From Raillietiella orientalis (Eukaryota), in the NCBI GenBank assembly GCA_036172245.1, contig JAYWIR010000009.1, positions 744,001 to 808,000 of the forward strand: a stretch of 64,000 nt of DNA, in the 5' to 3' direction. The notes under the pieces are model-generated. The model worked only from the letters and a program-made list of their open reading frames with translations. It made no database searches and had not been told where the DNA came from. How positions within the stretch are numbered: the stretch's first letter is position 1; every line of letters begins with the position of its first letter. The translations under genes were made by a program, and so were the position numbers. Of this stretch, positions 6,572 through 33,942 are shown one piece after another.

Positions 6572-6582
6572 TTGACCAAGGC

Positions 6583-7255
6583 ATTTATCACCCGGATATG
6601 CCGGGGCATTTATTATTAAAATTTGTTGCAAAATTCTATAATAAAGTCGATGCAAAGTTCGCATCGTGGTAGAACACTTGGTTCTACCACGCTCGAAGAC
6701 TTGTCATGAACCGGTACTAAGACCGGTGAGGTCCTCTCCAATGGCGAAGGGGAAGGGGAAAGCCAAACAAAAACAAACAAAAAGAAGAAAAAAAGGAGTG
6801 GAAAATTGTTTTAGGGGGGGGGGGAGGGCAGGGCAGGGAGTGGAGCACTACACTCTTGGATCGGTCCTCTGCATCCTCTCCAGGATGCTGACAAGTTCTG
6901 TTTTCATATTTTTTCGCTGGCGCCACCTCGTCGCGGTCTCCAAAAAGACCGTCGTCCAGTGGATGGCGTCTCTGCTTTTCTGACCTCTTCTTCCAGCGTT
7001 CCACCTCGCCAGGATGCCGCGAACGCAGCAGAGAACTGCGAAAGACGCAGCGGGACGTAGGCCATCACGCAGAAAGAGGCGTCGATAAATGACCTTAGGG
7101 TCGCCCACTGGAAGAAGGAGGATAGACGAAAGTCGATCCCAAAGTCCAACCAGGGCAACACACTCTATTAGAAGATGCGGGAAGGTTTCCCTTTCGCCGC
7201 ACTCTGTGCAACAGACATCCGCCACGACATACCCCTCATTTCTCGGCGTTGATCC
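6583..7255 (-). mobile_element. L1/Tx1-like LINE 3' fragment (ORF2 C-terminal CCHC zinc finger plus 3' UTR)
   Basis: ORF 6848-7225 gives CTECGERETFPHLLIEC, the CxxC...H....C motif typical of the LINE ORF2 C-terminus. The fragment ends in CCCCGG..CCGGGT followed by A-rich sequence on the minus strand. Confidence 0.75.
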
Positions 7256-7256
7256 T

Positions 7257-8260
7257 TGATTTTTTACCCGGTCACGGGGAAACGTTTCAAAACATTTTCC
7301 AAAAAAGCAGTCATATCAAATACAAAAATGTTTCTCTTCGTGGTGGCTTCACATCACTACAAAGGGAAATGCCGCCTCGGACGCGCTGCTTGTCGTGAGC
7401 AGCTTCCGCGGTGAGGTCCGCCAAGGAGCAGTGGGGGAAAAGGGTAAACAAAAAAAAACACACACACACACACATCAAAAGTTCAATTTAAAATGTTTGG
7501 AGGACGTCCTCAGCATCCTCTGGAGGATGTTGGCAACTTCTTCTCTTTGTTGTCAGGGATCTTGTCGCCTTCCTCACGAAGAAGCAGATGATTGGGATGA
7601 CCTCACTGTTCGACCGGCCTCTCTCCCCGACCGGCTTCTCGCCTCCACGATCTCACGAAGAGAAGCTGCAGGCGACATCGAGCCGCGCGTGAAGAGGCAC
7701 CGCAAAACCTCTCTGCCGTTGTCCATCGAAGGTGGGAGGTCCACAGCGAAGCGTTCCCTGACAATGAGGAAGGCAACACAATCCAGCAACAGGTGCGGAT
7801 TATCCACAGCGCACCCATTTCTCTGGCGTCGATCCTTTACAGGTATTCCAACCCACAACGCTCGACGTGTGGCGCGGAGACCTCAGCCACACGACCGCCT
7901 GCGCGGTCGCGCGACCTGGGCGATCCCCGCCTGCTTCCTCTCAACACGAGGTTCGTGTCTTTGGTTGCGAAAGACTGAGAGTCAACGGTGCGCGGTCGAA
8001 GAATCTCAATGTGGGCAGTGGCAACCGTGGAAGTGAGATCCTCTAAGAGGCATGCGAATGACTCGTGTCTGCCGAAGCAACTGCCCAGGGGATGGGTGGG
8101 GTTCGAGCAGTGTGGAAACACCAGAGCCGTTCCTGCTTCCAGAGCGCTCCCACCGGGAGACAGCAGGTTCCCCGTTCTCCCGCAGTTAGAATGAGGGGGT
8201 CACGGCGGCACGCGTGGAAGGGTTCCCGAGTGAGCTCTCCTGAAACTGCTGCCTTCGGCG
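7257..8260 (-). mobile_element. Second 3' fragment of a related LINE, abutting the previous one
   Basis: Peptides NGCAVDNPHLLLDCVAFLIVRERF and EEVANILQRMLRT parallel HLLIECVAL and TELVSILERMQRT of the neighbouring copy. Both 3' UTRs share CGGTGAGGTCC (plus strand). It ends in CCCCGTGACCGGGT-A7 on the minus strand. Confidence 0.65.
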
Positions 8261-9290: not shown

Positions 9291-11231
9291 TGGCGCAGCT
9301 CGGCGCACGGAGTAGGGGAGGGGAGGGGGAAAGGAAGAAGGGAACGAGTGCTTTCCTAAGTGCGAGCCTGGAACGAACAAGCAGGATGCCTGCTTCCCTC
9401 GCGACTTCTTTGCAGGAGGCCCGGCTCGCGTCCGGGCACGGCGGGCGTCCCGGGCTTTCGAACGGCCCGCCGCGCTCTTCCGCCGAAGAGCACGCGCGCG
9501 ACCGGCCGTCTGCGGTCGTGCGGCTCTGCCGCCGTGCGTGGCTGCCGAAAGCAAAGGTTAAGAAGCGATCAGAGGTTAAGGACACGCCGCTTTCCCTTCG
9601 CCGAACGCTGGCGCGTCTTCGAGTAATTGCTGACGTGGGTTGTCAGGTATCCCCGCACGCACGCACGCACGCACGAGGCGCGCGTTCCGCGAGACACGCA
9701 ACGCTCCCCGAAGCCGTCCGTCTGCGGCTTCCCGCAAGAAGTCTCCCTCCCCTTCGGGATGAGCGCGTCGGGACCGAAAGGGAAAATGGGGGCGTCGGAG
9801 CAAAAAGGACAACTGCTGGGCGGATGCGTTTTTGTGTGTGTGTGTGTGTTTTTTTTACAACGGTGTCGTCAGCCTCTCTCCTGCATTCTCGCCGAGCCCC
9901 TACTGGAGAAATGAAGAGGGGGGGCGGACCCCCTCCCAGCGCCCCCACGGCCTCCCCCGCGCTCGACCCCCCGGTCGAAGGGAGGCAGCCTGGAAGCGAG
10001 TATTCCAGAAGAAGTGCCTCCGGGTTCCCCGAGCCGTTTTGCCGAAATTCAAGTATTACACTAAGCAGAGGAAACGGACCAGAAAGCATTACCGGGAAGA
10101 ATTATGGCATCATCTGTTTCGAATAGTAATAATGTTTGCGTCGATAGATTGAAAATAGAAATTCGACTGGGATTTGGGAGGAGGGATTCGATTCCGGGAG
10201 CGCTCCCGTATCTCCCGTGCGAAAGCGGGCGGCGGACGCGGAAATCTCCTCTCCGTGTTTGCCTGAGTCTCTGTTTTATTTTTAAAGTTTTAATGTTCTC
10301 TGGAGGAAGGCAGGTCCCGGAGGAATCCGTGACAGGCTTCCCGTATTATTTTGGGTTTCCCTTTGATATGTTCCATGCATATTTGTTTGGCACATATTTG
10401 TAATTATTTTCAGACGGCAGACGCGGCCTCGGAAGCGATTCCTGCGCGAATCCCTTTTTTTTTCCTTCCTTCCTTCGCCTCTCCCTCTCCTCTGCAAAGG
10501 CGTGTCTGACGCCAGCGTGATGGTTTCGGGATCCATCATCCCGCGGGGCGGCGGGCGCGGGGCGCAGCCGCTGCGATCGCGCGGCGGCGTATCGAATTCC
10601 TCGCGCGCCCGGCGGGAGCGCCCCCGCCCTCCGCGCCGCCGAGGGGACGGGCGGCCATCTTGGATCCGCTGCGAGCCGTCGAAGGGGTGTTTCGGCCTCG
10701 GACGGGAGCGCGCGAAGAGGAAGCAGAAGAGGAGAAGAAAAACGCGCGCGCGGGCGAGCAGGGAGGGAGAGGGGGAGGGAGGAGTTTGCCGTGCTGCGCG
10801 AGCCGCCATCCACTGCATTCCCTAACCTTAATTATGATTCCATCATTCGTGGATCTCTCGCTGCTCAAAGACGGCCCTCGCATCCAAACGGCTTCTTGTT
10901 GAGATAACGACTTTCAGCACGGCGGATCAGCCGCAGCAGTTTCGCGCGATTCCTTTTGATTTCCGTCAGCTGCTTTCATCTCGGGATGAAACGGGGCTGC
11001 TAAACAGCGTTTTCAGTGCCTAAATAATTGATCATCATTCCGTTCGCTTGCGGATGCCCATCGGAAGGGAGGAAGAGAGAGACAAGTCGTAGTCGCCGAG
11101 CCGAGGAATGGGCAGCGCCTCTCTCGCCAGGCGCTCCTCGGACAACGTCCGAAATTCGGGTTCGTCACACGCTCGCTCGGAGGTCGCCACCCCTTCTCTC
11201 CCTTGGGTTCTTTGTTTCCACGCATCTCCGC

Positions 11232-11994
11232 CCACGGCAACCCACAGGGGGGCGTGCAATTCTTCAGGATAGGGGGCACCCCCGGATGGGGGTCCGCCCT
11301 ATGAATCCAGGAAGGACTCGGAGTCCGTTCCTCTGGCGCTTGGGGAGGGATCGCACCTCCCACCCTGGTTGTCTCCGGAGAACCCCGAAGGGAATCTCCT
11401 TCCTCATTCTCTCCGAAGGGGCACCCCCCTAATGGGGGGTGGTCCTCTCCATTTCATCTACTCCGGAGGGAGCCCGCAAGGGAACCGCTCCTGTTCAATA
11501 CTCTGAAGAGAACCCCGAAGGGACGCTTCCGAAACTCAGAAGGGTCGCTGCAGCTTCCCGCAGGGGGATCGCTCTCGCTTGCTTCCTTGCACTCTTCTGG
11601 AGAGGCGACGACTCGGAGGGACCCCCCAACAGGGGGGGGTCCGCTCTTTTGAACAACTGGAGAGGTGCCCGTGAGGGTTCCTGCTCCATCTTGAAACCGG
11701 AGGCGGTCCCCCGGTGATGGGGGTCCGCTCTCCGTTGCACGACAGGAGGGGGAACTCCCCGCTCCTTGATTCCTGGGAGGACCCGAAGGTCGACTCCCAT
11801 TGTTCCGGCCTTCATCGGGAGGCCTCCGGCTTTATCCACCGCCGGGGCCACGCCCGAATGTCTCGGCCAACCAGCGCCATCTTGCAGGAGAAACTCGGAA
11901 CCCAAACGACGCAGTGGCGTCAGTTATCTGCCGAAGTATATTCGAACCCGCGACGCACGGTGCCACGCGCGGAAGCCCTAACCACAAAGCCTCC
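11232..11994 (-). mobile_element. tRNA-derived SINE-like repeat, copy 2 (with head; subfamily shared with copy 4)
   Basis: Minus-strand head GGAGGCTTTGTGGTTAGGGC...CGCGGGTTCGAAT has a box A-like motif (11981-11992) and box B (11940-11948) at tRNA-like spacing. The body is homologous to the other three copies. Confidence 0.85.
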
Positions 11995-14959
11995 TCTTCC
12001 TTTGGAGGGGCGGAGGGGGCGGGTCCTCCTCGGGCAGGGCCCTCTCTCCCTTTCCCGCGCCTGAGGACCACCGCCACCACGCATAACGTGCCCGAGCGCA
12101 GAAGCGCCCGTGCCGCGCAGGAGGAGATGAAGAAGAAGAAGAAGAAAAGGAAAGGGGGAAGGCTCAAAATCAGCCAGCAGGGGGCTGGGCGGGTGGTCCG
12201 CTGGAGCAGCGACCCCCCAGGCCTGCGGAGGAGCACTCTTTTCGCGGACGGCCGGGACGGGAGAGGTGCCGAAAGGCGAGGACCGTCGTCGGTCCGCGAA
12301 GACGGTCCTCGAGCGGCCTTCGCCCGCGCAGCTTCCCGAATCTCGACGGCGACTACGCCGGGAGGTTTCGGCCGCCCCTCGGTCCCCTCTCCTTCCGTGC
12401 GTTAACGCGAGGACAGAAGAAGGGTTCCTTCCTCGAGTCGGGATCAAGGAAGTTCGTCTCTTCCTCCAACTTTTCGCGGATATCGGGAAGATGGAAAAAA
12501 TCCCATTTTCATCCGCGCGCGGCAGCGCACGTGTGGCTGCTAATCACCCGCGTAGTTACCGTGCCTTAATACTTGTAATCAACGAGGAATGGATCTCCTG
12601 GAGCTTGTTGGCGAATCTGCTAATGCCTGATTCTGGGTATTCGCCTCTCCTTTTTATTCTTTTTCCCTCCTTTTCCTTTTCCGAGTCGGGGAAATCTGAG
12701 GGAGGAAGGTGAAATCCTCAAATACATATAATTTTCGAGGAACAGAACTCGGCGTGTGATTACAGTCAATGAACTTGGCAATGGCACCATAAATCCGGGG
12801 AGGTATTTAGAAAAAGAAAGGAGAAATCATAATATCGGAGCTTAAAAGCGTAAATGGCTGATGGAAACCTCCCGACGGCTCTCCCAACTCTTCGCGATTG
12901 CATTCTTTCATAGCTGTCGGATCTATCTGCATGCGCGGGCCGTGAGGAATCGCAGAGGCTCGCCGGAGAGACTCCGGTTATCCGGGATTAATTCATCAAA
13001 GAACTCGGGCGAGGGCGCGTTTCCAAGGGCTGCTCCTGGGGCCAGCGGGAGGACCCATCGAGGGGCCGAATCGCGCCTCCCCCCCCCCCTCCATTTCGGC
13101 TCCCCCCGAGCGAGCCGCTCGGCGAGCCATCGGCGAGCGCGGAGCGAAAAAAATCGCCTCCCTCGGAAGTGGCTATTTATAGACGCCCTGATTATTTAAT
13201 TGCGGTTGTTCTTGGGAACGCACTCGAGCAACGCAACAATGCCAACGGTTCCTCGCCGCCCTAAAAATAGCTGCGGGAGGAGAGGGAGGGAGGCCGCGAG
13301 CGGAGCAGCAGCGCTTTTTTCGAGAATGTTCGCGCGGATTCCAGAAGACGTTTCCGATGCTGAAACGGGAAACGCCATCCGAGGTGACCCCCGTGCCCGG
13401 CGGGGCGGCTTCGTCTGCGGCGGCCGGAGCGCTCGGGATCCCCGGTAGGGGCACCGCAGACAGCATGGCGGCGGGTGAGCTTGGGACAGCAGGCGGCGGC
13501 GCGGCGAGCGAGGGGCAGGACGGGAGGCGGGGGCGCCGAGCGGGAGGAGGCGTGCACCCCGACCGGGCAAGGGATGGGCAGCTCGTTCGGTAGCGCCCGC
13601 TCGAGGCCACCAGAGGAATCCTTCCCTCCCTCCGATCGCGTCTTCGGCCGCTCACAGGAAGGCACGAGACCTTCAGGACGGGACAGCAGTCTCCGAGGCG
13701 CACGGGAAGAGGAGGCTGCCTGGGGCTGGGGACAGCAAGATGCAGGGGAGCTGCCGCGAGATGAGCGGGCAGAGGGGGGCCGCACGCAAGGACCGAATCG
13801 TGGCAGGGAGGGTCGCCACACTCTATTCACGGTGCTCGCGGGCACGCGGAAGGCGAAATCTGTGCAGCGTGCGCGCATCTTGTTCTTGCAGCGTGTTAGG
13901 GCACAGGAGGCTGGTGAAAAGCTAGGGATGGGGAGGGGAGTGCAATCCCCTCCTCCTCCTGCACGACTTGAGAGCGATTCCGGGGATCCGCTGGCGCCAA
14001 GGCTCGCCTCGAAGCCGATGTCGTCCTTGGAATGCGTTTTTCGACTCCTCCTTGGCTCTTGCCCCCGATCACTCCGAATGGCGGCCTCCGATACCGATCG
14101 CTCTGTGTGAGTGAGGGTGGGGTGGCGACGAGGCGATCCATCTTGAAAGTGGAGTGTGAGCAATGCGGGGGGCTCGGAAAGGCGGCCCCATCTCCTCGGT
14201 TCCAAGCCCTGCAAGTCCGACTCCCAGAATCAGCATCCTGTGGCCGCCACGTAGTCGCTCCAGCTAGAACATTTCGGGAATTTGCCAGACATCGGGAATG
14301 ATGGGGGTGGGAGCCGGGTTCCTTGAAGGGATGGGGGGGGGGAAGAGAATTTCAGTTTCAGAAGGGATCGTCGGCGCCTCCGACAGCACGCTACTCTGGC
14401 ACCACAGAGTTCTCGCAGTGACGGCGCGGATGATGCGCTTGCCCAAGGGAAAGGAGAGGTCCCCCGCGCGACGCACCCTTGCGGAAGAGGATGTCGCGGT
14501 ATGGAAGGGGAAGGGCATCCGGAAGAGGCCGCCATCTGGACGTCTCCGCTAGCCACTCCGCGACAACCGCGCTCACTGACGGGAGGGGGCCGCCCCCTTG
14601 ACGCAGCCGCCTCGCGAAGCAGATCACCGGGGCGCGGGCGGATTTTTCTGCTCCCTCCCTCCTTCACCCTCATTCCACACTGTGGACTCCGTCGGTGGTT
14701 GGACCGACTCGCGTCCCCTCCTGACCTTCCTTTCGGGCGATCGGATGACCGAGCAGGGTCCTCCGCGTCACCCCTGCCTCATCCCTCCATCTCTCCGAAA
14801 AGAAAGGAGGATAAATCCATCTGGAAGGAACTCCCGTTCAGGGCGCCTCCCAGAGTTCCTCTTAGGAACCATTTCAAAGAGAAGCAAGGAACCTCTGTGG
14901 CCATGGATACCGCGCACGCGCGCGAGCAGGTATATATTTTTTTTTTTTTTTTTTTTTTT

Positions 14960-15720
14960 TGCGAGAGGGCGTTCGTCAGAACTGGCCCTCGGGTCGGTCC
15001 CCTACGGGACCGCGGCCGGTTCCTGGAGGTGCACTCGAAAATGCCTCTTAGCGCCTGTGGCGGAATGGAGCTCTGGAAAGAGGGAGATCCAGGGGGCGGT
15101 TCGCGACACACAATTGTCGAACTACCCCCGGTCCACTGCCACTGCCCTTCTGTGGGACGGCGGGAACTCTCCCGCACTGACTGCTGGAATGTGGGAGGCT
15201 GCTAGGGTCCAGGGATGGGGAGACACTTCGGTCCCGTAGTGCCGCCGCCAAGAGATCTTGGAGAGACGCCCACGTCTCCAGGCTTGCCGGTTGCCACGCC
15301 GCTGGCGATCTTCCGCCACGAACGAGCCACGGTGATCGTCAAGATGAAGGGAGGAGAAATGCGGTCGACAACCCGGAGAGCTGTTGGCGATTGCCATCGC
15401 CCACATGGGGGGAGAGAAGGAATGGCTCCATACGGGAAGTGGGGTATGAGAGAGCCTCCGAATTCCTGTGGGCACACTAACCCAAAACCGGTGAGTACCA
15501 CCGTCCCTTCCGTCTCTTCCCTGCCTCACGCAGACCTTCGGGAATCAAGGGGAATGCCGTGAGGCCGGTCCATCCCTTTTCCTATTTATTTATTTATTTA
15601 TTCCTTGTCCCCCTCTCTTCTCCCTTCACTCCTCCCTAGTTCTGTTCCCTGCTGGCACGAGCCCAAAGGGATTACCCTTTAGGCTCGGGCCGGCGCATGT
15701 CGACATCTTTGGTTTAGACA
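14960..15720 (+). mobile_element. 3' portion of a non-LTR-like dispersed repeat (pairs with 40275-41100)
   Basis: Collinear blocks shared with the reverse complement of 40275-41100: ACTGCCACTGCCC, TTGC.ATCGCCCA, TCGGGAATC, (TATT)n and TCGGGCCGGC.CAT. Confidence 0.6.
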
Positions 15721-16619
15721 CCGAGTCGAGCCATCCTTTAGGGGCTGCAGACAAGATCCGCAGCGGGGAGGAAGAAAATGAAGAAGCAAATATATATATA
15801 TATATATTTTAATGGTTGGAGAGCGGGCAAGGGAAGGGGCCGCTCGCTCCGTCGCTTCCTCTGCGTCACACGCAAGCTCCACCTGATGGACTCGTCGCGA
15901 TCCCCACGAACGCCCTTGCCAAGTGAACGGTTTGCCCGCCATCTCTGGGTGTCGACGCGACGCCACGACGCGCAGGCGGGCAGCAGCAGCGCACGGCCCT
16001 CCGCACGTGGAGACGCGCTTCAGCAACGTCACCGGGATTGCCCACCGGGATGGAAGGTCCCCCGATTTCTGGAGGGCAACACGACGCACCAGCAGGTGCG
16101 GGAGGGCGCATTCCACCCCAACTCGCGCCTGGCCGGTGGTGCCGCCACTTCAGGGAAGGAGAGATCCGTCCGCCATCCCCCGGGGGCGCCTGCAGCTCGT
16201 CCGATGCGGTGCGGAAGAGTCCAGCCCAGCGAGCAAGTCCTTCGACAGGGGCGGGTCACTACACCGCTCTCGGCACTCGCGTCTCCTGGAACACTCCAGG
16301 GGGTCTTCCGTGGTGGAACTTTGACGTTGCTGCGTCAGCAAGCTGACCGCTGGGTCCGGCAGTTGTGCTTTCCGGGAGGCAGTGGGAAACCGCTCTCCTC
16401 ATGGGGTTTCGAAAATCTTTCGACTGCCTGAATAAATAGGTTGGGATCAGAATTAACTCTAGGCGTAACACTCCACAGATCATATCGATGCACTCTTCAT
16501 GGGACACCACCCTCAGGGTTTTACTGCATGCTCTTTTTGATTTGTTTACTCCCTCTATAGGAACTGGGGTGCTTCCGTAGGTTCCCCTTCGGCCTGCCAA
16601 CTCCATTGAGTTTTGTTGG

Positions 16620-16980
16620 CTACGTCCGTGCTGCGAAGAAGGGGCTGGCGCGGGAGAATGAGGTGATTTGCGTTGAGCTCTCGGTCCGAAGTCCGCTCAC
16701 GAAGTCCACACGTCCCGGGAACGCTGGGTGTCCGAGCACGCCGTTTTGTTTTTCTTCTTCTTTGCTTCGATTTGATTTGGTTGACCCAATCGTGCGTTCG
16801 GAGCCTTCTAGCTCTTCCAGTGATCCGTTGCTGGCCCCGCGAACGTCGCGGGCGCTCGTGGAGAGCCTGCGGCTGCGCTTCCTCTTCCCACCCTGCTCCC
16901 TCTGTTGCTGCCTCCGGCGAACCCCCGTGGCCACAAAGGGAGCGAGGAGAACAGATGATCTGCTCTCGGTCGCTCCCCGG
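16620..16980 (+). repeat. ~360-bp repeat, left member of an inverted pair
   Basis: Reverse complement of ~18810-19180. Exact 52-bp block at 16706-16757 and exact 21-bp block at 16664-16684; the remainder is roughly 80% identical by eye, with indels. Confidence 0.9.
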
Positions 16981-18279
16981 GGGGCTTCCGCATCCGCCGG
17001 CGCTGGAGTGGTCGACCCGCGGAAACGGAGCGATGCCTCCCGCGGGACGCGGAGGCTGCCGGGATGCGGACTGCTCTCACGGCATCGGCGGCAGCGCGTC
17101 TGGCACGCCGAGTGGTCGAAGACTGCGAGTTCCCTCTTCGCGGTGGCCGAGAATGTCACCTCCGCGGATGCTGCGCGTTTCGCGTGATGCGTCGTCCCGC
17201 TGTCCGGCGCTCCCGGCTTCCGGACGCTTCATCGATCTGGACGAAGGAGCCGTTCTTGAAGTAGGTAAAAAGTGGATCGTGCAGGAGCATCCCGGAGAAG
17301 GGCAATAATGGGGACACGTTACGAGATGATTGCTCCTGAGAGGAGGAAGAGCTCATTTCTACCGGGATCAACTGGGAATAAACGTAACAAGGAAAACGCG
17401 AAGCGAAAAAACGACCTGCGTTTCATCCTCCGGGAGCAGCGAGTGATCTCGACTAATTACGGAGAGAACGCTCAAAGAGGACGCTAGGAAGGGGAGGAAG
17501 GAAGGGTGGAGAGGGGGAAGGAAGGAAAGACCTCTGCTACCTCGGCGGGGGAAGTCGTGCTTGCGGTCCAACGAGCACCCACCTCCAGGAAAGGGACGGG
17601 GGCGAGGAAGAACCGCCGGGGAACCCGAAGAGCTCGGTACTGACGGTGTCCTCCCGGCTTGACGGCACCCCCGGGGATGCAGCCAATTCTTCCTCCCCCC
17701 CCTCCCCGTTTCGGAATCTCCGCATGCTTCCGGCTTCGGCGGTTCCGCGAGAAGCCCCTTCTGACGAAGGGTCGCGTGCCGTCCTCCTTCCCCCTCCCGA
17801 ACTCCCTCCTCCCGCGAATCTCCCGTCGCAGCCGCGGGCTCTCGGAGGAGGCAAAGGGAGAGCAGTTTTGTCGCCCGGCGACGCCGGAGGGTCTGTTCCA
17901 GAGCAAACAAACAAACAAGTCGGGAAGGCCGTTCCCGAAACGAAAACAATACGAGGAACCTCTGAGGGAAGGGTCATCGGCGCGCGGGTCGGTCGCTGGG
18001 ACAGTCTGAGGCGGGGAGGATGGCAAACAAAGGGGAGAGGGGGAGGGATTCTCGGCTCCTTTGTCCTCGGCGCCGGCGACTCTGCTCCCGATTTCCTCTT
18101 TCCGGAGAGGCCGCCGCGCAGACGACCTCCCTCCTCTGGGCGTCCCGGCATCCAGCACGTCGCGCGGGCCGCGACGGCGCGACCCGACCGAACCACCTGG
18201 TGGCTGCTGGCTTCCTCCGAGGTATCGTTCGGGACAGCTGACGCTCGTCGAAGCGGAAGGGAAGAGGGGATTCTCGTCC

Positions 18280-18700
18280 GGTGAAGCGAATGACCGGGAC
18301 CGAGATGACCTCGACCTATTCTCACTCTTGGAATGGGTGGGAAGTCCGGCGAATGTCGAAGCTCGGACCATGGGTCCCACGGGCACCCGGTGGGTCCATT
18401 GCGGTAAGCAGAACTGGCTCTGGATCACGACGCCCGACGAGACTCCCGTCAGATTCCTGAAAGGTATCCATGGACAGCAGGATGGTGGCCGCGGAAGTCG
18501 GAATCCGTCGAGGGGTGTCAGCAGCAACCCACCAGCCGGAGCAACCGACGCTGAAAGATGGATGGCGCTCATCTTCCAGGACAGAGCCGTTCCTGCCTTC
18601 TGGCTCGCTGCCGCCGGAGGACGGCAGGCATACCAGGTGCTGGCGAGTGGGAGTATAGTGACAGAAGGGCTGGATCCCGAGCTCTCCTGGACCCGCCGTC
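18280..18700 (+). mobile_element. Possible LINE ORF1 (gag-like) remnant between the inverted repeats
   Basis: DLFSLLEWVGSPANVEARTMGPTGTRWVHC resembles the L..xG.V....TGTRxV segment of L1/Tx1 ORF1. No intact zinc knuckle is present. Confidence 0.3.
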
Positions 18701-18809: not shown

Positions 18810-19180
18810 AGTGCCAGGGGACGACCGGGAGCAAATCATCTGCCCTCCTCGCTTTCTTTGCGGTCGCGAGAGATTGCCGGCGGCGGCAACAGAGGGGACA
18901 GGGTGGGAGGAGGAAGCACAGCTGCAGGTTCCCGGAAGAGCTGGAAGGTTCCGAACTCACGGGTGGGTCAAAGCGAATCGAATCGGAGCAGAGAAGAGGA
19001 AGAAAAACAAAACGGCGTGCTCGGACACCCAGCGTTCCCGGGACGTGTGGTAACAACCCTGAAGAACTTCGAGAGCGCAGGTCGCGGAGGGCGGATCGGC
19101 CGAGAGCTCAACGCAAATCAGTCCCTTCTGCGCCATCCCCTCCCTTTCCCTTTCCTTCTCCTTGGCGCGGACGCAGCATC
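18810..19180 (-). repeat. ~370-bp repeat, right member of the inverted pair
   Basis: Exact reverse-complement blocks at 18999-19050 and 19100-19120 match 16706-16757 and 16664-16684. Confidence 0.9.
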
Positions 19181-19808
19181 CTGCTGCCTACCGAGATTCC
19201 GCCTGGAGCGAAGAACGGCCGCAGTCGATCCTTGGCAGTGTCGTCCTGGCTCAGGAGTGCTGGAAGGAGAGCAGCGGCAGACACCGAAACGCGGGGCATT
19301 GCAGTGGGAAGTAGGTGGGGGTAACTTCCTCCGCCAGTCTCAGAAACGGCCCCATCCGTGCTCGTGGCCACGGGGCGCTCCTGCCGAGTCCAACAAAATG
19401 CGCCGCCTCGCACCTGTGTTGTCGTCGGCTCGCGTCACGATGACGTCACTCTGCCAGCAGCTGCACTCCGCTGGCTCTGCTTAGTGCCCCATCCCCATCC
19501 TACCCTGACTCACCCCTCCCTCATCTTGCCATCCCTCCTTTTCCTCTTCGGTGTGTCTCGAGCTCCCTCTGCGAGCTCTGGTGGGAACGACAGGTGGAAA
19601 GGAAATTTAGGATGTTCAAGGATCTTCCTCGAGCCTCGCCGGTTTGGCAGGACTCCCCTGAAGCCCCTTCCAACGCAGCGGCCGCCTTTGACCGATCGGG
19701 ACCGCAACCGCGGAGGAAGAGAGCGCAAGCGAACTCCAGAAAAGGGAGGGAGGAAGGAGCGAGCGAACTCTTTCGACACCGGCGCGGCTGCGCTGCCCAA
19801 GAAGCGAA

Positions 19809-20424
19809 CTCGCTTGGGCGGTTGCGTGGCTGCGGTCTCCGCTCACCGTGCCAACCGTCTCAGGTTTGAATCCCACCCAGGGAAGGACCGATGCCGAGAA
19901 CGGGGGTGCGTCGTGGGTTCCGAGACCCTCCGCAAGATAACGCTGGTTGGCCTATTCGGGTGCGAGTCGCTGGTGCACGCCGGCAGCCCAATGCTTCCTT
20001 TGACTGTCCGGGATTGGAAGTGGACCCTTCGGGGTCCTTCCAGGAATCAAGGATCCAGTTCCCTTCGGGCATCCTACCCTCCCCCCTCTCCTTCAGTTGT
20101 GCAAATGGAGCCGCCCATCGCATACTATGGAGCTGGTGGATTCATGATGCCTCTCCAGAATGTCAAGAAGCGTGCTGCTTCCTTCGGGAAGCGACCCTTC
20201 GGAGAAATTGGGAAGCATTTCTTCGGAGTTCTCTTCAGAGGAGGAGCGATTTCCTTGCGGGTTTTCTCTGGATACAGTCGGGAAGAGACCCTTCCCCAGT
20301 GTGAGAGCAACGGACTCCTTCCTCCGGAATCCTTCTTGGACTCATGAAGTGGTCCCCTCCCGGGGTACCCCCTAACTTGAAGGGTCAACACACATCCTCG
20401 GGTGGCGTGGAGCAGCGTTAAAGA
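19809..20424 (+). mobile_element. tRNA-derived SINE-like repeat, copy 3 (sense orientation, with head)
   Basis: Head GGCGGTTGCGTGGCTGCGGTCTCCGC...CAGGTTTGAATCCC has a box B-like motif at 19863-19874 and aligns with the heads of copies 2 and 4. Hairpins GGACCC-TTCG-GGGTCC (20022-20037) and GCTTCC-TTCG-GGAAGC (20177-20192). The 3' block CGGGTGGCGTG is shared with copies 1 and 4. Confidence 0.85.
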
Positions 20425-21789
20425 AGCGAGCGGAAAACGCGCGCTTCGAACGTAGCAATCACCATCAGCTTGGACCAATGAGGCGGCCGTATGCAGGGAG
20501 GGGCGCCAACACGTGAGGAGAAGTGGGCGCGGCCCAGACGCACTCCGCAGCCCACCTCTCGGAGCTCCTGAGGTTCGCCCTGCGAAACGCGTCCTCCCCC
20601 CCCCCGTTCGTGCTTCCCATGTGTTGCCGCGACGCGTGGGAAGGAAGGGGCAGCCCCTTGATGCTCGTCGGGACGGGAATGAGCGCCCGGGAATCGACGA
20701 CTGCTTCCCGGAGGGCGCCTCCAGCCGTGGATCCCCTCGTCCGGGGAAGTCGGACCATCCGCTTGAAAAAAAAATAAAAAGGACTGCAGCTGGATAAGGG
20801 CCGGCCCGACGTCCGCCGAGGGCGGAGGATCTAGGGAGGAGTCGAGGGAGAGGAGGAATAGGGAATGGAAGGGACCAGTCCTTCGGTACCGAAGACGCTT
20901 CTTGAGGGTCTGCGTGGGGCCGGAAATGGAAGGGAAGAGCAGGGCCAGCCGAAATCGCGCAGGGGTTCCCTGGGACATCGTAGCCAGGATCGGGCTATTC
21001 CCTCGATCTTCGCACGCTGGAAGTGGCGATCTCAAACGGCGGCTCTTCGAGATGGAGGCGGTAGGGACGTCCGTCTCTGCAGCTGCCACCACGTGACGGT
21101 GGAAACCCCAGCCGTGAGCTGGAGCGATGGCGCGACAGGGAAGGCACGCCAATCCCCCACCTCCCCTCCTTCCGAAGCGTTAGCTTGGAGGTTTGACGGA
21201 AGCCGAGCGTCGAATGCGTCCTGCCCGCTTCACCACGTTCATCCTTCCAGGAGCCGGGAATCTCCCCTGGGGCGCTCCAGCGTCCGGTTTTTCTCGGAAG
21301 CACTCGTTGAAAGCCACAGCAAGGCTCGCTCGGGGGAGGAGGAGGAGTCCAGGTGGGGCCCTCAGCTTCGAAGGAAACGGTGGAACCGAACGAGGACGCC
21401 CGACTCGCGAGCCGGCCGGGCAGCGAGACCGGGGCGCGTGAGCGGAAAGGGGACGAGAAAGCATCTCCGCGTGCCTGTGCGCGCGCTCTGGGGCATCCTC
21501 CATCTCACCAGGAGCGAGCGAGCGCGCTCCTCCCCGATTGCGTTCTGTGCAGGAAGGGGGGAGGAGGGCATGTCGACTCCCCCCCTCCCCCCCTTGCGAC
21601 CTCTGCGGAGAGAAAGAGGCGACTTGCTCGAACTGCCGTCCGCGCCCCACCCGGCCGAGAGTCACCTCAACGCAGTGAAGGCGATCAGCGGTTGCGGCGG
21701 AGCCTGGTAGGCATGTCTCCCCACATCCCCCCCCCCCCTAGTCACGTGGGGGCGTTCATTTGGAAATGAACTCTCAAGTCGGGAAGCCA

Positions 21790-22559: not shown

Positions 22560-25500
22560 TTTTTGAAGGAAAGCAGAAAAGAGTTCGAGGGGAAGATTTG
22601 CCGACACGCAGGTCCGCCTCCCCCAAAGTCCGGAATTGGTGGGAGAGGACAACAAATAAATGAATAAAGGAAGAGTAGTGACAGTGGTCTTTGACTCCTT
22701 TCTTCTCAGTACCGCCATCCAATGCTGGAGACCTTCATCCCGACTTCCTCCTTTAGGTGAGGTCACCCTGCAACTGTCCTCATGTAGGCGACTACTGAGC
22801 GACTGACCTCCCTTCTCTGCATCCCAGCTTCCAACACACGGCGGACTGTGACCGTAGCGCGGATGCAACATCTCGCTGCTTGTCGTGATTCCACGCCGCG
22901 AGAAGAATCGCAGCAAATCCATGGCTGTATCCACGGGAAGCAAAAGTGCCGAAGACAGCCTCCGATGCAGTTCGAAAAAGGCACCAACGATTCGATCGTC
23001 CCGCACCTGGAACCGTTCGGGGACGCACCTTCCCCGGAGGAGGCGCCGACGCCAGTTGAACTGGAAACCCCCGTGCAGAAATAGCAGCACCTCACGCTTG
23101 CACCTCGAGGGGATCGCCGAAGTGTCCACACACAAAGGAGCGACCGCTAGTTCTTCGAAGGACACACGCGAGGGCTCTTGCCACCGCGGTAACCCCATGA
23201 CCTGATACAACGTGGAGTAGTGGCGACAGCCACCAGCTCGCTCGCCTTTCGGTCGTCGAGGAGTTTGGTCGCTGGGCCACCGCCGCTGATTGCACCGCGG
23301 CAAGGGAGATGACGGCCACGGGAGTCCTCTTCATCGAGTCTGCAGGGCATCTTCCAGTGGAACGTTGAGAAGATTACGCAGGGGACGAAGTAGTTGCGGG
23401 CGAATCAATTGTATCCTCAGGTCCATCTGCCTCCAGGCATTCGAGTTGATTGGGCAGCAGGAGACCCAAGGACGAGCCCCCCGAAGAGGGAAGCCAAATC
23501 CCGGCATCCTGTGTCGCCGGAGAGGCAGCAACGAAAGGAGGTCTTCGCCTCCGACGCAGCACCGAACGATGGGGATGCTTGTGGTTCAGTGCTTCATGTC
23601 CACTCTTTTTGAATAGACGACCTCGCGTCGGGTCTGAAGACGTGTTGTCTCTGCATCCTGAGTGCGTCGCCTGGGAGGCGGACGACTAATCTTGGTGCAC
23701 CAACCTTAGTGAAAGCTAGAAAGGATCAATGGATCAGCGTCAGCGGTCGTCGGACCGGCGTGACCTCTTTGCCCGAGAACGAGGGATGGCGGCGTCCGCC
23801 GGCTCGCTCGTCGTGCGGCCGTCCGGGAGTTTCGTAACTCAAGCACCTTTGTGCCCACCCACCGGTCGGCCTCTGTCTCCGCTTGTCCTCGGGACAGGCA
23901 GCACCGCAGTAAGGGGCGTCACCGCCTCCTGATGCTAGGCAGACGGTCGCACGTAAACGGCAAATATGCCTTCCTGATGCAGGGGGGTGCACCGTCTCTG
24001 GACGCACTCATCCGCTACAGAGATCGCCGTGGTTCGGGCAACAGGAGCGGGAAGGATTGGAGCTTTTCGCGCCTGGAACAGTTCACAGGGACGTTCCCCC
24101 TAGCCCCAGCGGTAGTTGATGAGGAATAGGGGGGTAGGGAAAATGGTCTCACTTGCAACAGAGAGTAAAAGAGGGAGCCATCTTTATCGAGTGCAGGCTG
24201 CAGAAGACGCGTCGGCGGAACCACTGACTCCTCTCCTTGACCTCGGTTCAGGATTTTCTGCCTTGCCGACCTGCGAGTCGGTGACATATTGCTGCATCTC
24301 ATTTCCTTCCTTTTAACTGCAGGGTCCCGTGATCCGATGTTCTTCCTTTGCTTCTTTGTTTCTTTCCGGATGAGAAATGAACGCCCCTGAGTGACCCGGA
24401 GACGGTGGGTGGCTGTGAGCTTTGGTAAGGACAGGCCCAACGCAGCCGCTTGCTACCACTTTTCGGAAGGAGCGGCACATACCCTCTTGGAGGGTTAGCT
24501 GATCTTCTGGAAAGATTTCCAGAAAACGCTCCCAGCACTTTCATCCTTGGGAATGAGCTCGCGGGGTGGAACTGTCGTGCGGACCAGCTGTCTAGTGGAT
24601 CGAGGCGGCCGCTGCTGCTGCCTCGCAGGCGAATTTCCGGCGGCAGACAGCTGCTCTCTCTTGGGGCGAGGTTGGGCACCTTCGACTGAAGATCTGGGGC
24701 AGATGTCTCAGATCACCTTGGCTTGACGTTGCTGAGCTGAAAGCACGCGGTTCCCTTTTTCCGGCGTTTGGCTGAAGAACACTGGAACAGCGACGCTCCT
24801 TCATGTCTGATCGGGAAGGACGAAACCCGGTCTGCCAGTTGAGATGGGTAAGCAGACGCCGGAGGGATCGCTACAAACTCTCCTTCGGAAGCATTTTCAT
24901 CCTATTCATGGCTGCGGGACCCCGCGTTGGGGTCAGCAAAACGCATCACCTCACTCGTGCGAAACCGGCTTGAGCCGCGACCGAGTCCAATCATCGGTCG
25001 AGGGAAGGACTGACGAGTCATCTCGCCACACCCTGACTCTGGCATCAAGCGCAGCAGATGCTTCCGAGTGGCTCCCGAAGCCGAAAGAGAACCTCGTGAA
25101 ATTCACGTGCCCGACGTTGCACGGAGCGGTCTGGGGGGGCGCTTCTTTCAGAGGGGGCGCAAAGAAGGGGTCTGCTTTCCTGCATCTCAAAGACAAGAAC
25201 CGTGTCGTCGTCGAAGGAGGGTCGCCTCGGCAACGTTTGTCTTTAATGGCACGGAATTTCTCTTCGGCTTGTTTTCCTTGGAACCAATGAAAGAAGGCAA
25301 ACAGAAACTGGCAGATGACTCATCGTATCAGGGCCGCGCGCCCTCCTGGACTCAATGGCACATGAAGGAAGCGATTTGCCACGATCCAGCACGGCGATCA
25401 GGGAATGCCAATGTTCCGTAATCGCGCCGGATGAGGAATCTCCTGCAGGCTGCCGTGATGAATGGCTGGAAGGTCGTTCCCTACGCGGCGAGACGATGGC
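22560..25500 (-). mobile_element. Long decayed L1/Tx1-like ORF2 remnant (EN-like, RT-like, C-terminal region, 3' UTR)
   Basis: Motif remnants appear in the expected order on the minus strand: NFTRF...AALDAR (EN-like, ~25100), LNRGQGEESVVPPTRLLQPALD (RGxxQG..SP.LF-like, ~24220), MPGFGFP (GGLG-like, ~23500), RRLSSALLLPVD (C-terminal family match, ~22950), then the 3' UTR. Confidence 0.6.
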
Positions 25501-31560: not shown

Positions 31561-33300
31561 CGGTCACATCCTACCGCGCTTCTCTGGCTGAGTACCGTAC
31601 GCACTCACGTACCTCATGCTCCCCAGCCCACAGGCACTTTGCACAAACAGTAGGCGTCGTTCCTCGGTCGCCATCGTCTCGTCCGTTGCTGTGAGCATCA
31701 AAAGCCGCGGTGATGTAGACCGGAACTGCAGTGTACGCCACGTCACGTACCGTGCCCCATGGACTTATTTAATGTAATGCATTTCCAATTCACAGGTGAA
31801 TCGCTAATGAACTCCGCTGCATCGCTCCAATGCACTCCATCACACAACGCACGAGAACGTGAGAAGCTTCGCCATGGATACTCCGACGCGAAGCATGGAG
31901 ACCGATGCGGTTTTATTTGCACACAATATATCTATCTATATAAATATATATTGAACTGGCTTATATACTTAATATGTGTATATATATTAATGTCTAAGTC
32001 ATACCTAGATTAGTGTATATGTATATATATATGTGTGTGTGTGTGCATACGTAATATACATTTGTAAGCCACCTGCATGTTACATGTGCTCTACTATTCG
32101 TGAAGATACGCGGCTCCAGTCGTTCGTGCTGAATATCCGGAGAGCATTTTTTTTTTTTTTTTTTTCTGTAAACCTGTGAAGCTGCGTCGAATTTTAATGC
32201 GAGTGTGGACCGCAGTTCCCTTTTGTGGGAGCGAAATTTTGAGTGAAAATCGAGTTGCCAGTGGAAGACTCCTTCTGCCCTTCCTCATTCAACCTCCTTT
32301 AATCACTGTTGGGCTCTGCGTTGTTAATAAATGCTTTGTAATGTGGATTGCGATTATGTGATTAATGCCTTTTGAAATTCGCCCAAGTCCACTGATCCGA
32401 CGTCTTTGTGACGTTTATGATCTGCGAGCTAGAAATTTTCTCTGGGTACCGTCTTTTCCAAAAGTTGCGTTTTGCATCTCTAATCGCATCGTAAAAGAAG
32501 TGCAAGAAAATCAAAAAAAAAAAAAAAAAGGAAGAAAAGGAAGAAGAGAAAAGAAAAAAAAACTTGCGAATGTGGGTCTCGAGACTAAGGGTCGATACGT
32601 CTTTTGTTAATTTATTCGTTTATTTATTTATTTCGTGGGCTCGAGGCTCGGAATCGGCTGAGGTTTCCCGGCTGGCAACCCTGCTCTGGCCACCATTTCC
32701 CTGACCTGGCAGAGCGTTCGGAAAATGGAAATGACCCGAGAGCAGAATTCAAGCGGAAGATGAGTTGAATGCTTTTTACCAAAGATGATCGCGTCCGTTA
32801 GTGCTCAAAATAAATACTGCCGCTGCATCTGAAAGGAGAAGAAAACAACCCCCCCTAAAAAAAAAAAAAAAAAAAAGAAAAAGAAAAAGAAAAAGAAAGA
32901 AACGAAAGGCAAGGAAGGATTCTCCCAAATTGAGATGTTCGATATCTGCTAATTTATCATGATGCTTTTCGTTTAGCAGCACGAAGATGAATAATCGCAA
33001 AACGCCGTAATCTGTGTTTTTTTAATAAATAGAAGCACGGATGGAAACAGAACTCGAGCACTTTCTCAAGCCAATAAATCTTCCCAGGTGCAATAAATTC
33101 GCCTTACATCGGAGCGTTCGGTTTATCTGGGAAGCCTGCGCTCGTGACGGCGCTTTTTAAAACCGGCGTTTAAAGCCGCGGAGTTCGTCTTTCACTTGGG
33201 AAAGCTCGCTTACATAAACTGTAGATGTTTCGGGGAGGAGGGAGGGGAGGGGAAAAGGTGGGGAGAGAGGGAAGTAGAGAGGAAGAAGCAATTTATTCGT

Positions 33301-33318
33301 TGATTGATAATCCGATTA
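33301..33318 (+). promoter_or_regulatory. Overlapping TGATTGAT (Exd/Pbx-Hox type) and TAATCCGATTA (P3 paired-class homeodomain palindrome) motifs
   Basis: TGATTGATAATCCGATTA read directly, in unique sequence. Function is inferred only. Confidence 0.35.
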
Positions 33319-33400
33319 GAAAATTTTCACAAAGGCCTCCTACATTTCTTCTCCGAAGCGGTCGCGACAGCATCGCTTTTTTTTTTCTTTCTTTCTTTCC

Positions 33401-33402
<2 letters not shown>

Positions 33403-33442
<40 letters not shown>

Positions 33443-33465
33443 TGCGTGCGCGCGCGCGTGTGTGC
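33403..33465. repeat. (TG)18 followed by mixed (TG)/(CG) alternating tract
   Basis: Read directly from the sequence. Confidence 0.9.
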
Positions 33466-33942
33466 TGCAGTGTGGAGGAGGACCTTCCTGCCTTTCAGAC
33501 AGAGGAGCGGGAGAATCCACCCCCGCACCCTGGCGTTCAGACAGATTGCCTGCCGTCGAGACGAGGGATTTGACTTCCGGTGACGACGTGCCTTCCTCCT
33601 TTTTCACCGGGGTGCACTTCCTTCGGAATCCGGAGCGCGCTCTTCCCCCCTCCCCTCTCCCTCTCTTCCGCGGTTTGGAAGCGCGCGAGAGAGCCGCCGC
33701 TATGGGTGGTTTCGCCGGCCGGTTGGCTGGCTGTCCCACATCTTCGCGCGCGCGCGCGCGCGTGCGTTCCTCTGCGGAATGCGGCGGCCCGCTCGGGTGC
33801 GACCGCACTCTCTCAGCGCGAACGCCCGCGACACGCACGCACAATCGATGGGATGGCTTCTTCTTCCCCCCCCCCCCCATCCTCCTTTCTCCTCCTCCCT
33901 CCCTCCCTCCCTCCCTCCCCCCACGCCCCGCTCAAGAGATGG

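Follow-up and report, generated by a model that had tools for sequence, protein, structure and literature searches.

A dispersed, non-coding repeat family with an array of 42-nt units: a probable retroposon, SINE-like or related to LINEs, whose body resembles a VNTR

The SVA (SINE-VNTR-Alu) elements of hominids are Pol II-transcribed, polyadenylated and built from Alu-like and SINE-R parts. RIME/ingi, NARTc/L1Tc and SIDER of trypanosomatids are non-autonomous elements of ~0.5 kb that derive from LINE ends; the protist genomes that carry them are GC-rich and contain many, degenerate copies. The promoter of tRNA-derived SINEs has its box A near +8 to +19 and its box B near +52 to +62. Stringent-type LINE/SINE pairs are described as having a shared 3' stem-loop that is recognised by the reverse transcriptase (PMC1636434, PMC4176376). 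SINE superfamilies with a shared central domain (CORE, V, Deu and mollusc families) are described as modular, with conserved internal blocks (PMC4758252).

The repeat family described here was found in a 64-kb window, the whole stretch of DNA that was analysed. It shares with the eel UnaL2/UnaSINE1-type tRNA SINEs a lack of coding capacity and of autonomy, a fixed 5' start that bears a box-B-like motif where a tRNA would have it, and a composite structure. A LINE-related segment, hairpins in its 3' part, duplications flanking two of its copies and the absence of poly(A) are further points in common. It differs from these SINEs in the lack of any detectable tRNA likeness in its head, in its weak box A and in its length of 611-774 bp; moreover, its LINE-related piece lies just after the head rather than at the 3' end, and its 3' block occurs in no LINE of the window. 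Like SVA, which has a central array of GC-rich 35-50-bp units in variable number, it is a non-autonomous composite, here with units of ~42 nt present one to six times. However, it has no SVA parts or tails and the organisms are unrelated; the likeness is one of build and not of shared descent. The presence of conserved blocks (here of 14, 13 and 10 nt) beside variable parts recalls the CORE, V and Deu superfamilies, a comparison made by description only, and Rfam gave no match to SINE central domains. RIME/ingi, NARTc/L1Tc and SIDER are likewise non-autonomous, but, in contrast to what a trypanosomatid would have, the window showed no intron-less conserved genes (0 Pfam matches, 163 ORFs). A literature search for UUCG-bearing SINE retroposons found no related description.

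The first-pass annotation of this DNA had reported four homologous copies, and self-BLAST and nhmmer recovered all four within ~10 nt of the limits it gave (c1 to c4; Table 1). Pairwise identity among them is 62-77% (divergence 23-38%), with large indels, and they form two subfamilies, c1/c3 and c2/c4. Only 50% of the alignment columns are invariant, yet there are invariant blocks of 14, 13 and 10 nt. Element length, 611-774 bp, reaches or exceeds the usual maximum for SINEs. Both c2 and c4 have stops in all frames and the family has no conserved ORF. Pfam matched none of the 163 ORFs of at least 150 aa in the window and gave only sub-threshold noise in 98 shorter pieces; no homologue was found for a 541-aa ORF of the window. 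The family is real: an old, dispersed, non-coding mobile element, with all comparisons drawing on the four or five copies that this single window of 64 kb contains.

Table 1. Coordinates of the repeat copies and associated features in the 64-kb window; c3 is the element under study.
Feature	Position	Strand	Basis
Body plus 3' domain of copy c1 (109-692 in the model)	5941-6568	-	self-BLAST, nhmmer
Copy c2, 774 bp	11224-11997	-	self-BLAST, nhmmer
Copy c3, 611 bp	19810-20420	+	BLAST, nhmmer; ends set by flanking direct repeats
Copy c4, about 730 bp	53377-54107	-	self-BLAST, nhmmer
Fifth head c5 (model positions 2-87)	7800-7925	-	nhmmer E 5.1e-6; E 4e-11 with c2-c4 model
c3, candidate 5' target-site duplication, AAGAAGCGAAC	19799-19809	+	matches 20421-20431
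c3, 5' head module	19810-19885	+	head alignment; no tRNA, 5S or 7SL match
c3, box-A-like motif in head	19819-19829	+	3 mismatches
c3, box-B-like motif in head, GGTTTGAATCC	19863-19873	+	1 mismatch
c3, segment X, like LINE ORF DNA at 7222-7258	19883-19916	+	local alignment, BLAST
c3, hairpin GGACCC-TTCG-GGGTCC	20022-20037	+	hairpin scan
c3, invariant block after GGACCC hairpin, CCAGGAATCAAGGA	20040-20053	+	alignment
c3, hairpin TGCTTCC-TTCG-GGAAGCG	20176-20193	+	hairpin scan
c3, single clear 42-nt unit left	20207-20243	+	unit HMM E 0.064
c3, invariant GTTCTCTTCAGAG inside unit	20228-20240	+	alignment
c3, conserved 3' block, CTCGGGTGGCGTGGA	20397-20411	+	0-1 mismatch in c1, c3 and c4 only
c3, candidate 3' target-site duplication, AAGAAGCGAGC	20421-20431	+	matches 19799-19809
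c1, array of six ~42-nt units	6066-6308	-	TRF, regular spacing, unit HMM
c2, three units	11373-11530	-	unit HMM E 4.2e-5, 2.1e-4, 0.011
c4, array of three to four units	53563-53719	-	unit HMM E 3.6e-7 to 0.099
Interval of ~1.2 kb separating c5 from c1; tandem pair of LINE-like 3'-end units	6569-7799	-	self-alignment
155-aa ORF remnant, motif CX2CX7HX4C (CCTECGERETFPHLLIEC)	6851-7315	-	ESM Atlas, HMMER

One copy, c1, had been described as 5'-truncated, which it probably is not. A model built from c2-c4 only matched c1 at 6568-6226 (E 1.2e-69) and 6221-5946 (E 1e-44), corresponding to model positions 109-692, and matched a fifth head, c5, at 7824-7905 on the minus strand, corresponding to positions 2-87. 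As the two stretches follow one another in the model, c1 is probably a complete copy interrupted by ~1.2 kb of LINE-like sequence, with c5 its missing head. The nearest relative of the c5 head is the head of c3, c3 being the sister of c1. The AT-rich stretch before c1 was also considered as a mutated head and rejected, its similarity to the heads not being significant. Within the interval, 7798-7505 aligned to 7180-6863 with a score of 90, against 25 ± 3.3; 7460-7409 matches 6779-6724, and 7370-7258 matches 6700-6582 (equalled by 5 of 300 shuffles). The 155-aa ORF remnant in this interval is taken to be the zinc-binding C-terminal region of a LINE ORF2. In the ESM Atlas, 24 of its 30 matches fell in zf-RVT clusters, with top scores of 0.96-0.95, and a HMMER search of the protein library matched it to protein P0002 (E 2.9e-4). 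In P0002 a zf-RVT domain scores E 4.9e-5, short of the Pfam cut-off; Pfam was negative on the ORF itself. A full HMMER scan gave only two relatives of the LINE-like ORF (P0001 and P0002) and a word-index search among longer proteins gave none. LINE-like fragments of the window lie at 6851-7315, 7505-7798 and 15888-16106, with a weak one at 22754-22982; LINE-like 3' ends occur both within the copies and close to them.

The same ORF remnant provides the link between the repeat family and LINEs. Segment X of both c3 and c5 matches 7222-7258, inside the remnant; for c3 the local alignment score is 34 against 18.2 ± 2.7 for shuffles (maximum 30 in 300 shuffles), and BLAST gives 75% identity over 36 nt (E 0.006). 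The resemblance of the family to LINE DNA thus covers ~36 nt. The region after box B, made into a profile, scored below shuffled decoys against the four LINE fragments, and the translated c3 head gave no protein-level alignment to the LINE ORF or P0002. For the box A-B part of the head against DNA upstream of the 16.1-kb LINE fragment, 111-439 of 500 shuffles were as good. A 3' tail common to the family and the LINE-like units was not significant, even with lenient transition scoring. A LINE with the same 3' block, which the first-pass annotation suggested looking for, does not occur within the window: CTCGGGTGGCGTGGA is absent from its LINE fragments, and six further matches at 3 mismatches are at chance level (3.5 expected). 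A partner could lie elsewhere in the genome.

Three or four copies begin at the same base within ~20 nt, and there is no collinear homology upstream of the heads of c2-c5. Candidate target-site duplications of 9-11 bp flank two of the four copies, c3 and c4, in both cases sitting exactly at the limits of homology. Those of c3 share 10 of 11 bases, nine as an exact run (equalled by 15 of 300 random segments), while c4 is flanked by nine exact bases, GGTGGTCCT, at 54108-54116 and 53368-53376 (equalled by 11 of 300). The flanking direct repeats of c1 and c2 were not significant, and no duplication surrounds c5 and c1 taken as a single element (244 of 300 random segments as good); the target-site duplications that the first pass proposed looking for were found in part only. 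No copy is followed by an A-rich or simple-repeat tail. The element ends are TCGCTT..GCGTTA and GCCCTC..GCAACT. There are no terminal direct repeats or TG..CA ends, and no terminal inverted repeats, the likeness of the first and last 50 nt being equalled by 106, 295 and 178 of 500 shuffles. A solo LTR was rejected given the lack of TG..CA ends and duplications of 9-11 bp rather than 4-6 bp, as was a MITE or DNA transposon given the lack of terminal inverted repeats.

Alignable heads in three copies, as first reported, were borne out by the head alignment. These heads had been credited with box A and box B at tRNA spacing and with a tRNA origin. A box-B-like motif does lie at the place expected in a Pol III internal promoter, +47 to +54 when counted from the duplication-bounded 5' end. 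Scored against consensus motifs, it has one mismatch in c3 and c4 and two in c2 and c5 (it reads GGTTCGAAT in c2 and c4), with the box-B-critical C altered in c3 and c5; only 14 sites in 128 kb (both strands) match box B equally well. Box A is poor: the bases resembling it lie around +6 to +12 and show, on the same scoring, 2-3 mismatches per nine specified bases, and A+B motif pairs arise by chance, at 4-19 loci in shuffled windows at the same stringency. ARAGORN found no tRNA in the window, in four heads or in the consensus head, lowered thresholds included. Neither the four heads nor their consensus was matched by the Rfam tRNA model (E ≤ 10), and the heads showed no likeness to 5S, 7SL or any Pol III RNA in Rfam. 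The alignment fold of the heads contained no cloverleaf and was weak (-8 kcal/mol). With all of these searches negative, a tRNA origin of the head is not detectable and not supported. Judged by its motifs, the head may be an internal Pol III promoter. Sense-strand T4 runs are absent from c2 and c4, and one occurs in the middle of c3.

Downstream, the body had been described as a chain of UUCG hairpins. Both of the hairpins quoted are present in c3 (Table 1), and the description applies mainly to c3 and c2; hairpins with a TTCG loop and a stem of at least 4 bp number only 0, 1, 2 and 2 in c1 to c4. Underlying the hairpins is a repeated unit. TRF gave the c1 array a period of 42, with 2.4-2.5 copies and 77-79% matches, and the unit cores are regularly spaced at 41-44 nt. 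An HMM trained on five of the six c1 units gave 19 matches at E ≤ 1, 18 of them within copies and all of these on the sense strand of the copies. The number of units varies from six in c1 through three to four in c4 and three in c2 to one in c3, which is without ~180 alignment columns. The GGACCC hairpin region is itself unit-like (unit HMM 20015-20046, E 0.036) and c1 carries an internal repeat at a 164-nt offset. Within copies, CTTCGG occurs 14 times on the sense strand and once on the antisense, while across the whole window it occurs 36 times on the plus strand and 40 times on the minus. As far as sequence comparison indicates, the hairpin chain is a tandem series of one ~42-nt unit rather than a fold kept by selection; the small hairpins would be many because that unit was duplicated in tandem. 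A designed-looking chain of extra-stable tetraloop hairpins can thus come from duplicating one small unit, which is a caution for structure-based RNA discovery.

Nor do both arms of the shared hairpin change together, as had been proposed. Its 3' arm and the sequence after it (GGGTCCTYCCAGGAATCAAGGA) are identical in all four copies, the stem is just shorter in c2 and c4 (GACC/GGTC), and c1 and c4 have TCTG and TCCG, respectively, as their loops; this is not base-pair covariation. The invariant 22-mer GGGTCCTYCCAGGAATCAAGGA had 0 matches in the metagenome, genome and viral contigs searched.

Selection on the RNA fold, part of the first-pass interpretation, is not supported, four sequences giving low power. 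Single-sequence folding energies are ordinary (z -1.1 sense, equalled by 3 of 20 shuffles; z -1.8 antisense). RNAalifold gave a covariation term of +0.75 kcal/mol. Within the power of four copies there is no significant covariation, an outcome that the first pass had itself named as refuting its proposal. Compensatory pairs numbered 14 against 13.7 ± 3.8 in column shuffles, and G.U to A.C mismatches stood at 19:25, showing no strand bias (p 0.45). A weak sense-strand signal remains in the consensus fold, at -92.0 against -75.9 ± 5.9 for column shuffles (z -2.7; best shuffle -91.0, n = 40), with z -0.4 on the antisense strand. When pairs were limited to a span of 40, z was -1.8 and compensatory pairs numbered 14 against 8.2 ± 3.3. 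Pairs changed on both sides numbered 13 against 7.7 ± 1.9 in shuffles, with the structure derived from the same alignment.

Taken together, we consider the family to be, with reasonable probability, an old, non-coding, non-autonomous and composite SINE-like retroposon family mobilised by a LINE-type reverse transcriptase and with a VNTR-like body; that is, an ordinary SINE-like or LINE-related retroposon. Copies would arise through an RNA intermediate and be inserted by the reverse transcriptase of a LINE partner, leaving the 9-11 bp target-site duplications. On this reading each element comprises a 5' module of ~85 nt with the box-B-like motif, possibly a Pol III promoter; segment X, ~36 nt with a relationship to the zinc-binding C-terminal region of LINE ORF2; the conserved hairpin and then the invariant block; a VNTR-like array of one to six ~42-nt units, each with an inverted repeat of the TCCC-TTCG-GGGA type; and a conserved 3' domain with the last bases CGGGTGGCGTG. 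Several observations count against this reading: the copies end without an A-rich or simple-repeat tail, the 3' block is absent from the LINE fragments of the window, the duplications are not significant for c1, c2 or c5 plus c1, box A is weak and A+B pairs arise by chance, the heads resemble no Pol III RNA in Rfam, a length of 611-774 bp is great for a product of Pol III, the LINE likeness covers ~36 nt, and a weak sense-strand fold signal remains.

It is unlikely that the copies are instead long Pol III SINEs derived from a tRNA, with a chain of C(UUCG)G hairpins kept by selection on the RNA fold. The box-B-like motif at +47 to +54 and box-A-like bases at about +6 to +12, the common 5' end and the duplications at two copies all agree with such an origin, as do the 14:1 preference of CTTCGG for the sense strand, the consensus fold (z -2.7 sense, -0.4 antisense) and the lack of a sense-strand T4 run in c2 and c4. 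However, ARAGORN and the Rfam tRNA model were negative on the heads, whose weak consensus fold (-8 kcal/mol) shows no cloverleaf; there are 2-3 mismatches in box A and the box-B-critical C is altered in c3 and c5; and the T4 run of c3 is mid-element. The fold argument is further weakened by the single-sequence z of -1.1, the covariation term of +0.75, compensatory pairs equal to shuffles, the 19:25 ratio of G.U to A.C (p 0.45) and the descent of the hairpins from one duplicated unit. We are more doubtful still of an extended version, in which Pol III-type SINEs of an unusual 0.6-0.8 kb, in a little-studied GC-rich eukaryote, would use the 42-nt UUCG unit array, variable in number, as a multivalent platform that binds the partner reverse transcriptase or else an RNA-binding protein. 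The head, X core and tail would then be exchangeable modules common to the elements and to a zf-RVT LINE, which would itself insert into them. If the Pol III reading were true, these would be among the longest SINEs and would offer a handle on the LINE/SINE partnership in an unstudied lineage; the evidence now falls short of this.

A LINE derivative formed by internal deletion, comparable to RIME/ingi or NARTc/L1Tc of trypanosomes, in which the 85-nt head would be the LINE 5' end and promoter joined to the LINE 3' region with no Pol III RNA ancestor, seems improbable, a shade more so than the tRNA origin. Segment X, directly after the head, does resemble LINE ORF2 C-terminal DNA, the head is unlike any known small RNA in Rfam, and 0.6-0.8 kb is a more fitting size for a derivative of this sort than for a Pol III SINE. 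Nevertheless, the window is without a full-length LINE, the box A-B part of the head is not significantly like DNA upstream of another LINE fragment, and the family does not match the LINE fragments at the 3' end. The c5 region, taken as one element, would join the same head to a LINE ORF2 tail and 3' UTR, but c5 fits better as the head that belongs to the split c1, and this example therefore falls away. It is very improbable that the copies are plain 5'-truncated LINEs whose repeats are LINE 3' UTR with no identity as a unit: despite the common LINE-like fragments in the window and the likeness of segment X to LINE DNA, three or four copies share their start within ~20 nt, two being bounded by duplications, nothing LINE-like or RT-like lies upstream of the copies, and the LINE fragments seen here differ from the family in their 3' UTR. 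Functional structured non-coding RNA genes, rather than a mobile element, can hardly be entertained. Such genes might be expected from the invariant blocks of 14, 13 and 10 nt where only 50% of columns are invariant, and from the weak sense-strand consensus-fold signal, but the copies diverge by 23-38%, with large indels and variable unit number, have flanking duplications, are in one case disrupted by a 1.2-kb insertion, and show no Rfam match or excess covariation.

The family, in our preferred reading a SINE-like composite retroposon, occupies ~4% of the window (roughly 2.8 of 64 kb) and is therefore probably a major repeat of the genome, making it worth masking and annotating. It also supplies markers for dating insertions.

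Comparison of the window against itself by BLAST gave 11 off-diagonal matches, nine of which link four stretches, so the four homologous copies proposed in the first-pass annotation are present. Identity in the four-way alignment is 74% between copies 1 and 3, 77% between copies 2 and 4 and 62-69% for the other pairs, which indicates two subfamilies of old copies. Half of the 497 aligned columns are invariant, with runs spanning 14 nt (CCAGGAATCAAGGA), 13 nt (GTTCTCTTCAGAG) and 10 nt (AACGGACTCC). A profile of the four copies recovered one further piece, a head (the 5' module of the element) at 7824-7905 on the minus strand (E 5.1e-6); with filters off, nothing more was found in the window at E < 0.01 except antisense self-echoes.

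Repeat copies (self-BLAST stretches), flanking repeats and LINE-like pieces in the window
Feature	Position	Strand	Remark
Copy 1	5937-6568	-	six units (five are the training set)
Copy 2	11258-11960	-	three units
Copy 3	19926-20424	+	one unit
Copy 4	53382-54073	-	three to four units
Copy 3 flanking repeats	19799-19809, 20421-20431	+	AAGAAGCGAAC, AAGAAGCGAGC
Copy 4 flanking repeats	54108-54116, 53368-53376		GGTGGTCCT
155-aa open frame	6851-7315	-	second insert unit, carries CCTECGERETFPHLLIEC
Degenerate LINE-like 3' ends	6851-7315, 7505-7798, 15888-16106, 22754-22982	-	CX2CX7HX4C intact in one (155-aa frame)

No collinear homology was detected upstream of the four heads by BLASTN or TBLASTX, which indicates that the family has a fixed 5' end. 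Candidate target-site duplications were found at copies 3 and 4, where the match between flanks was equalled by 15 and 11 of 300 random window segments, respectively; no significant direct repeats flank copies 1 and 2. The element has no terminal inverted repeats, terminal direct repeats or TG..CA ends, and no A-rich tail follows its 3' block. Copies 2 and 4 contain stops in all reading frames. A stop-free frame of 340 aa at 19325-20347 (+), covering flanking sequence upstream of copy 3 and most of the copy itself on the sense strand, contains no Pfam domain and has no counterpart in the other copies; it is probably due to chance in GC-rich DNA.

The body had been described as a chain of C(UUCG)G-type hairpins. 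Exact hairpins of this type with a stem of at least 4 bp do exist, at just 0, 1, 2 and 2 in copies 1 to 4, and counts of the motif CTTCGG are 2, 5, 5 and 2 in sense orientation vs 0, 0, 0 and 1 in antisense. Units arrayed in tandem make up the body (TRF period 42 in copy 1, which also has an internal repeat at an offset of 164 nt), their cores being spaced 41-44 nt apart. A profile trained on five units of copy 1 gave 19 matches at E ≤ 1, of which 18 lie within the copies, all on the sense strand; weaker matches fall on the supposedly conserved GGACCC-TTCG-GGGTCC region of copies 3 and 1. Given this array, the hairpins are copies of one ancestral unit, varying in number in a VNTR-like manner. 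Nor do the arms of the conserved hairpin change together, as had been proposed: one stem is shortened, no copy differs in the 3' arm or its flank, and the loop is itself variable, reading TCTG in copy 1, TCCG in copy 4 and TTCG in the other two.

Selection for pairing, another earlier proposal, is shown by no statistic, four sequences giving little power. Copy 3 folds at -244 kcal/mol, where dinucleotide shuffles give -237.9 ± 5.4 (z -1.14) and 3 of 20 fold as well; its antisense strand gives z -1.79. RNAalifold scored the four copies at -91.95, composed of -92.7 for folding and +0.75 for covariation; 13 pairs changed on both sides vs 7.7 ± 1.9 in shuffles (2/500), in a structure taken from the same alignment. 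When column-shuffled four-copy alignments were refolded as the control, the sense-strand consensus fold was -92.0 vs -75.9 ± 5.9 (z -2.7, best shuffle -91.0, n = 40), the antisense z was -0.4, and compensatory pairs numbered 14 vs 13.7 ± 3.8. Limiting the pair span to 40 gave z -1.8 and 14 compensatory pairs vs 8.2 ± 3.3 (maximum 20, n = 100). Sense-strand stems of at least 6 positions contain 19 G.T vs 25 A.C mismatches (p 0.45), giving no indication of a preference for wobble pairs on the proposed RNA strand. The local inverted repeats are kept as sequence.

A tRNA-derived head found no backing. ARAGORN detected no tRNA in the four heads or their consensus, also at lowered thresholds, and no tRNA genes in the 64-kb window; no Pol III RNA, be it tRNA, 5S, 7SL or another, was detected by Rfam in the four heads at E ≤ 10, and the consensus of the heads folds at -8 kcal/mol with no cloverleaf. 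The claimed promoter boxes fared unevenly against the consensus motifs, with one box B mismatch in copies 3 and 4 and two in copy 2 and the fifth head, vs 2-3 of nine positions mismatched in box A. Box B with at most one mismatch occurs at 14 sites on both strands of the window, and A+B pairs of the same stringency number 4-19 per shuffled window, so that the motifs alone are weak evidence. The position of the box-B-like motif, +47 to +54 from a 5' end set independently by the duplications, speaks for A/B boxes. The head may contain a Pol III promoter.

Copy 1 had been considered 5'-truncated. In a 696-position model trained on copies 2, 3 and 4 only, with copy 1 and the fifth head left out, the fifth head matches positions 2-87 (E 4e-11) and copy 1 positions 109-692 (E 1.2e-69 and 1e-44). 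The two lie on the same strand, in collinear order with the model and 1.2 kb apart, and the nearest relative of the fifth head is that of copy 3, the sister of copy 1. The simplest reading would be a single full copy, interrupted at about 6569-7799, rather than a truncated one. Alternatively, three adjacent elements may be involved; no direct repeats flank the joined copy.

The insert comprises two collinear homologous units, in which 7798-7505 matches 7180-6863 (alignment score 90 vs 25 ± 3.3 for shuffles), 7460-7409 matches 6779-6724 and 7370-7258 matches 6700-6582 (a score reached by 5 of 300 shuffles). Both units may be read as 5'-truncated LINE 3' ends. The spacing CX2CX7HX4C of CCTECGERETFPHLLIEC is what we take to be the cysteine-histidine motif ending non-LTR ORF2. 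Pfam made no call on the 155-aa frame, while 24 of its 30 ESM Atlas matches are zf-RVT clusters (scores 0.96-0.95). A HMMER scan of 1.84 billion proteins gave only two relatives, the unnamed P0001 (E 8.5e-16, 49% identity) and P0002 (E 2.9e-4), which matches zf-RVT at E 4.9e-5 and 24.3 bits, under the 27.5 cut-off. The LINE-like piece at 15888-16106 scored 72 vs 28 ± 3.4, and that at 22754-22982 is a weak match. AT-rich homologous stretches at 6582-6700 and 7258-7370 (-) close each LINE-like unit (...CCGGGTRAWAAAT), contrasting sharply with their GC-rich surroundings. The 16.1-kb LINE-like piece is followed directly downstream by a member of a second repeat family (15520-15714, -), about 70% identical over 198 nt to 40304-40489 (+).

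A segment of about 36 nt after the head (19883-19916 in copy 3; 7838-7802 after the fifth head) resembles 7258-7222 in the zf-RVT-like frame, scoring 34 vs about 18 ± 2.8 for shuffles (maxima 28 and 30 in 300 shuffles; BLAST E 0.006). Beyond this segment, a link between element and LINE fails every test. The heads of copies 2 and 4 do not align significantly with the LINE-like ORF, a profile of the post-head region scored under decoys against the four LINE pieces, and the box A-B part has no significant match to DNA upstream of another LINE piece. Element and LINE have no protein-level likeness, and the 3' ends of the family are unrelated to those of the LINE fragments in the window; the 3' block CTCGGGTGGCGTGGA is confined there to copies 1, 3 and 4.

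The copies are dispersed and of unit length, two with candidate flanking duplications, and the element most resembles a non-autonomous retroposon, either SINE-type or LINE-derived, of composite build with a VNTR-like middle. It would have inserted via target-primed reverse transcription; we infer both the RNA step and the partner. LTR element, MITE and plain truncated LINE were each rejected on their tests, and a tRNA-derived SINE on the defining one, head ancestry. The literature searched offers only general parallels to the element, namely the 3' stem-loops recognised by stringent LINEs (PMC1636434, PMC4176376) and modular SINEs (PMC4758252).

The window has 59% G+C and a CpG observed/expected ratio of 0.96, that is, no CpG depletion. 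None of its 163 stop-to-stop ORFs of at least 150 aa has a Pfam domain, and codon-position G+C gives no clear signal across 1-64000; either genes are sparse here, or their exons are short or lineage-specific. At the gathering score, Rfam matches only one stretch, a weak fragment of eukaryotic LSU rRNA at 18215-18653 (+), 1.2 kb upstream of copy 3 (model positions 959-1387; 51.9 bits vs a gathering score of 50), which may be rDNA-derived or a GC-rich chance match. It is flanked by an inverted repeat pair, 16706-16981 and 18814-19050, with 71% identity over 280 nt. An AT-richer island at 32000-34000 (48% G+C vs 59% overall) has long A and T tracts and contains a (TG)23 microsatellite at 33403-33448.
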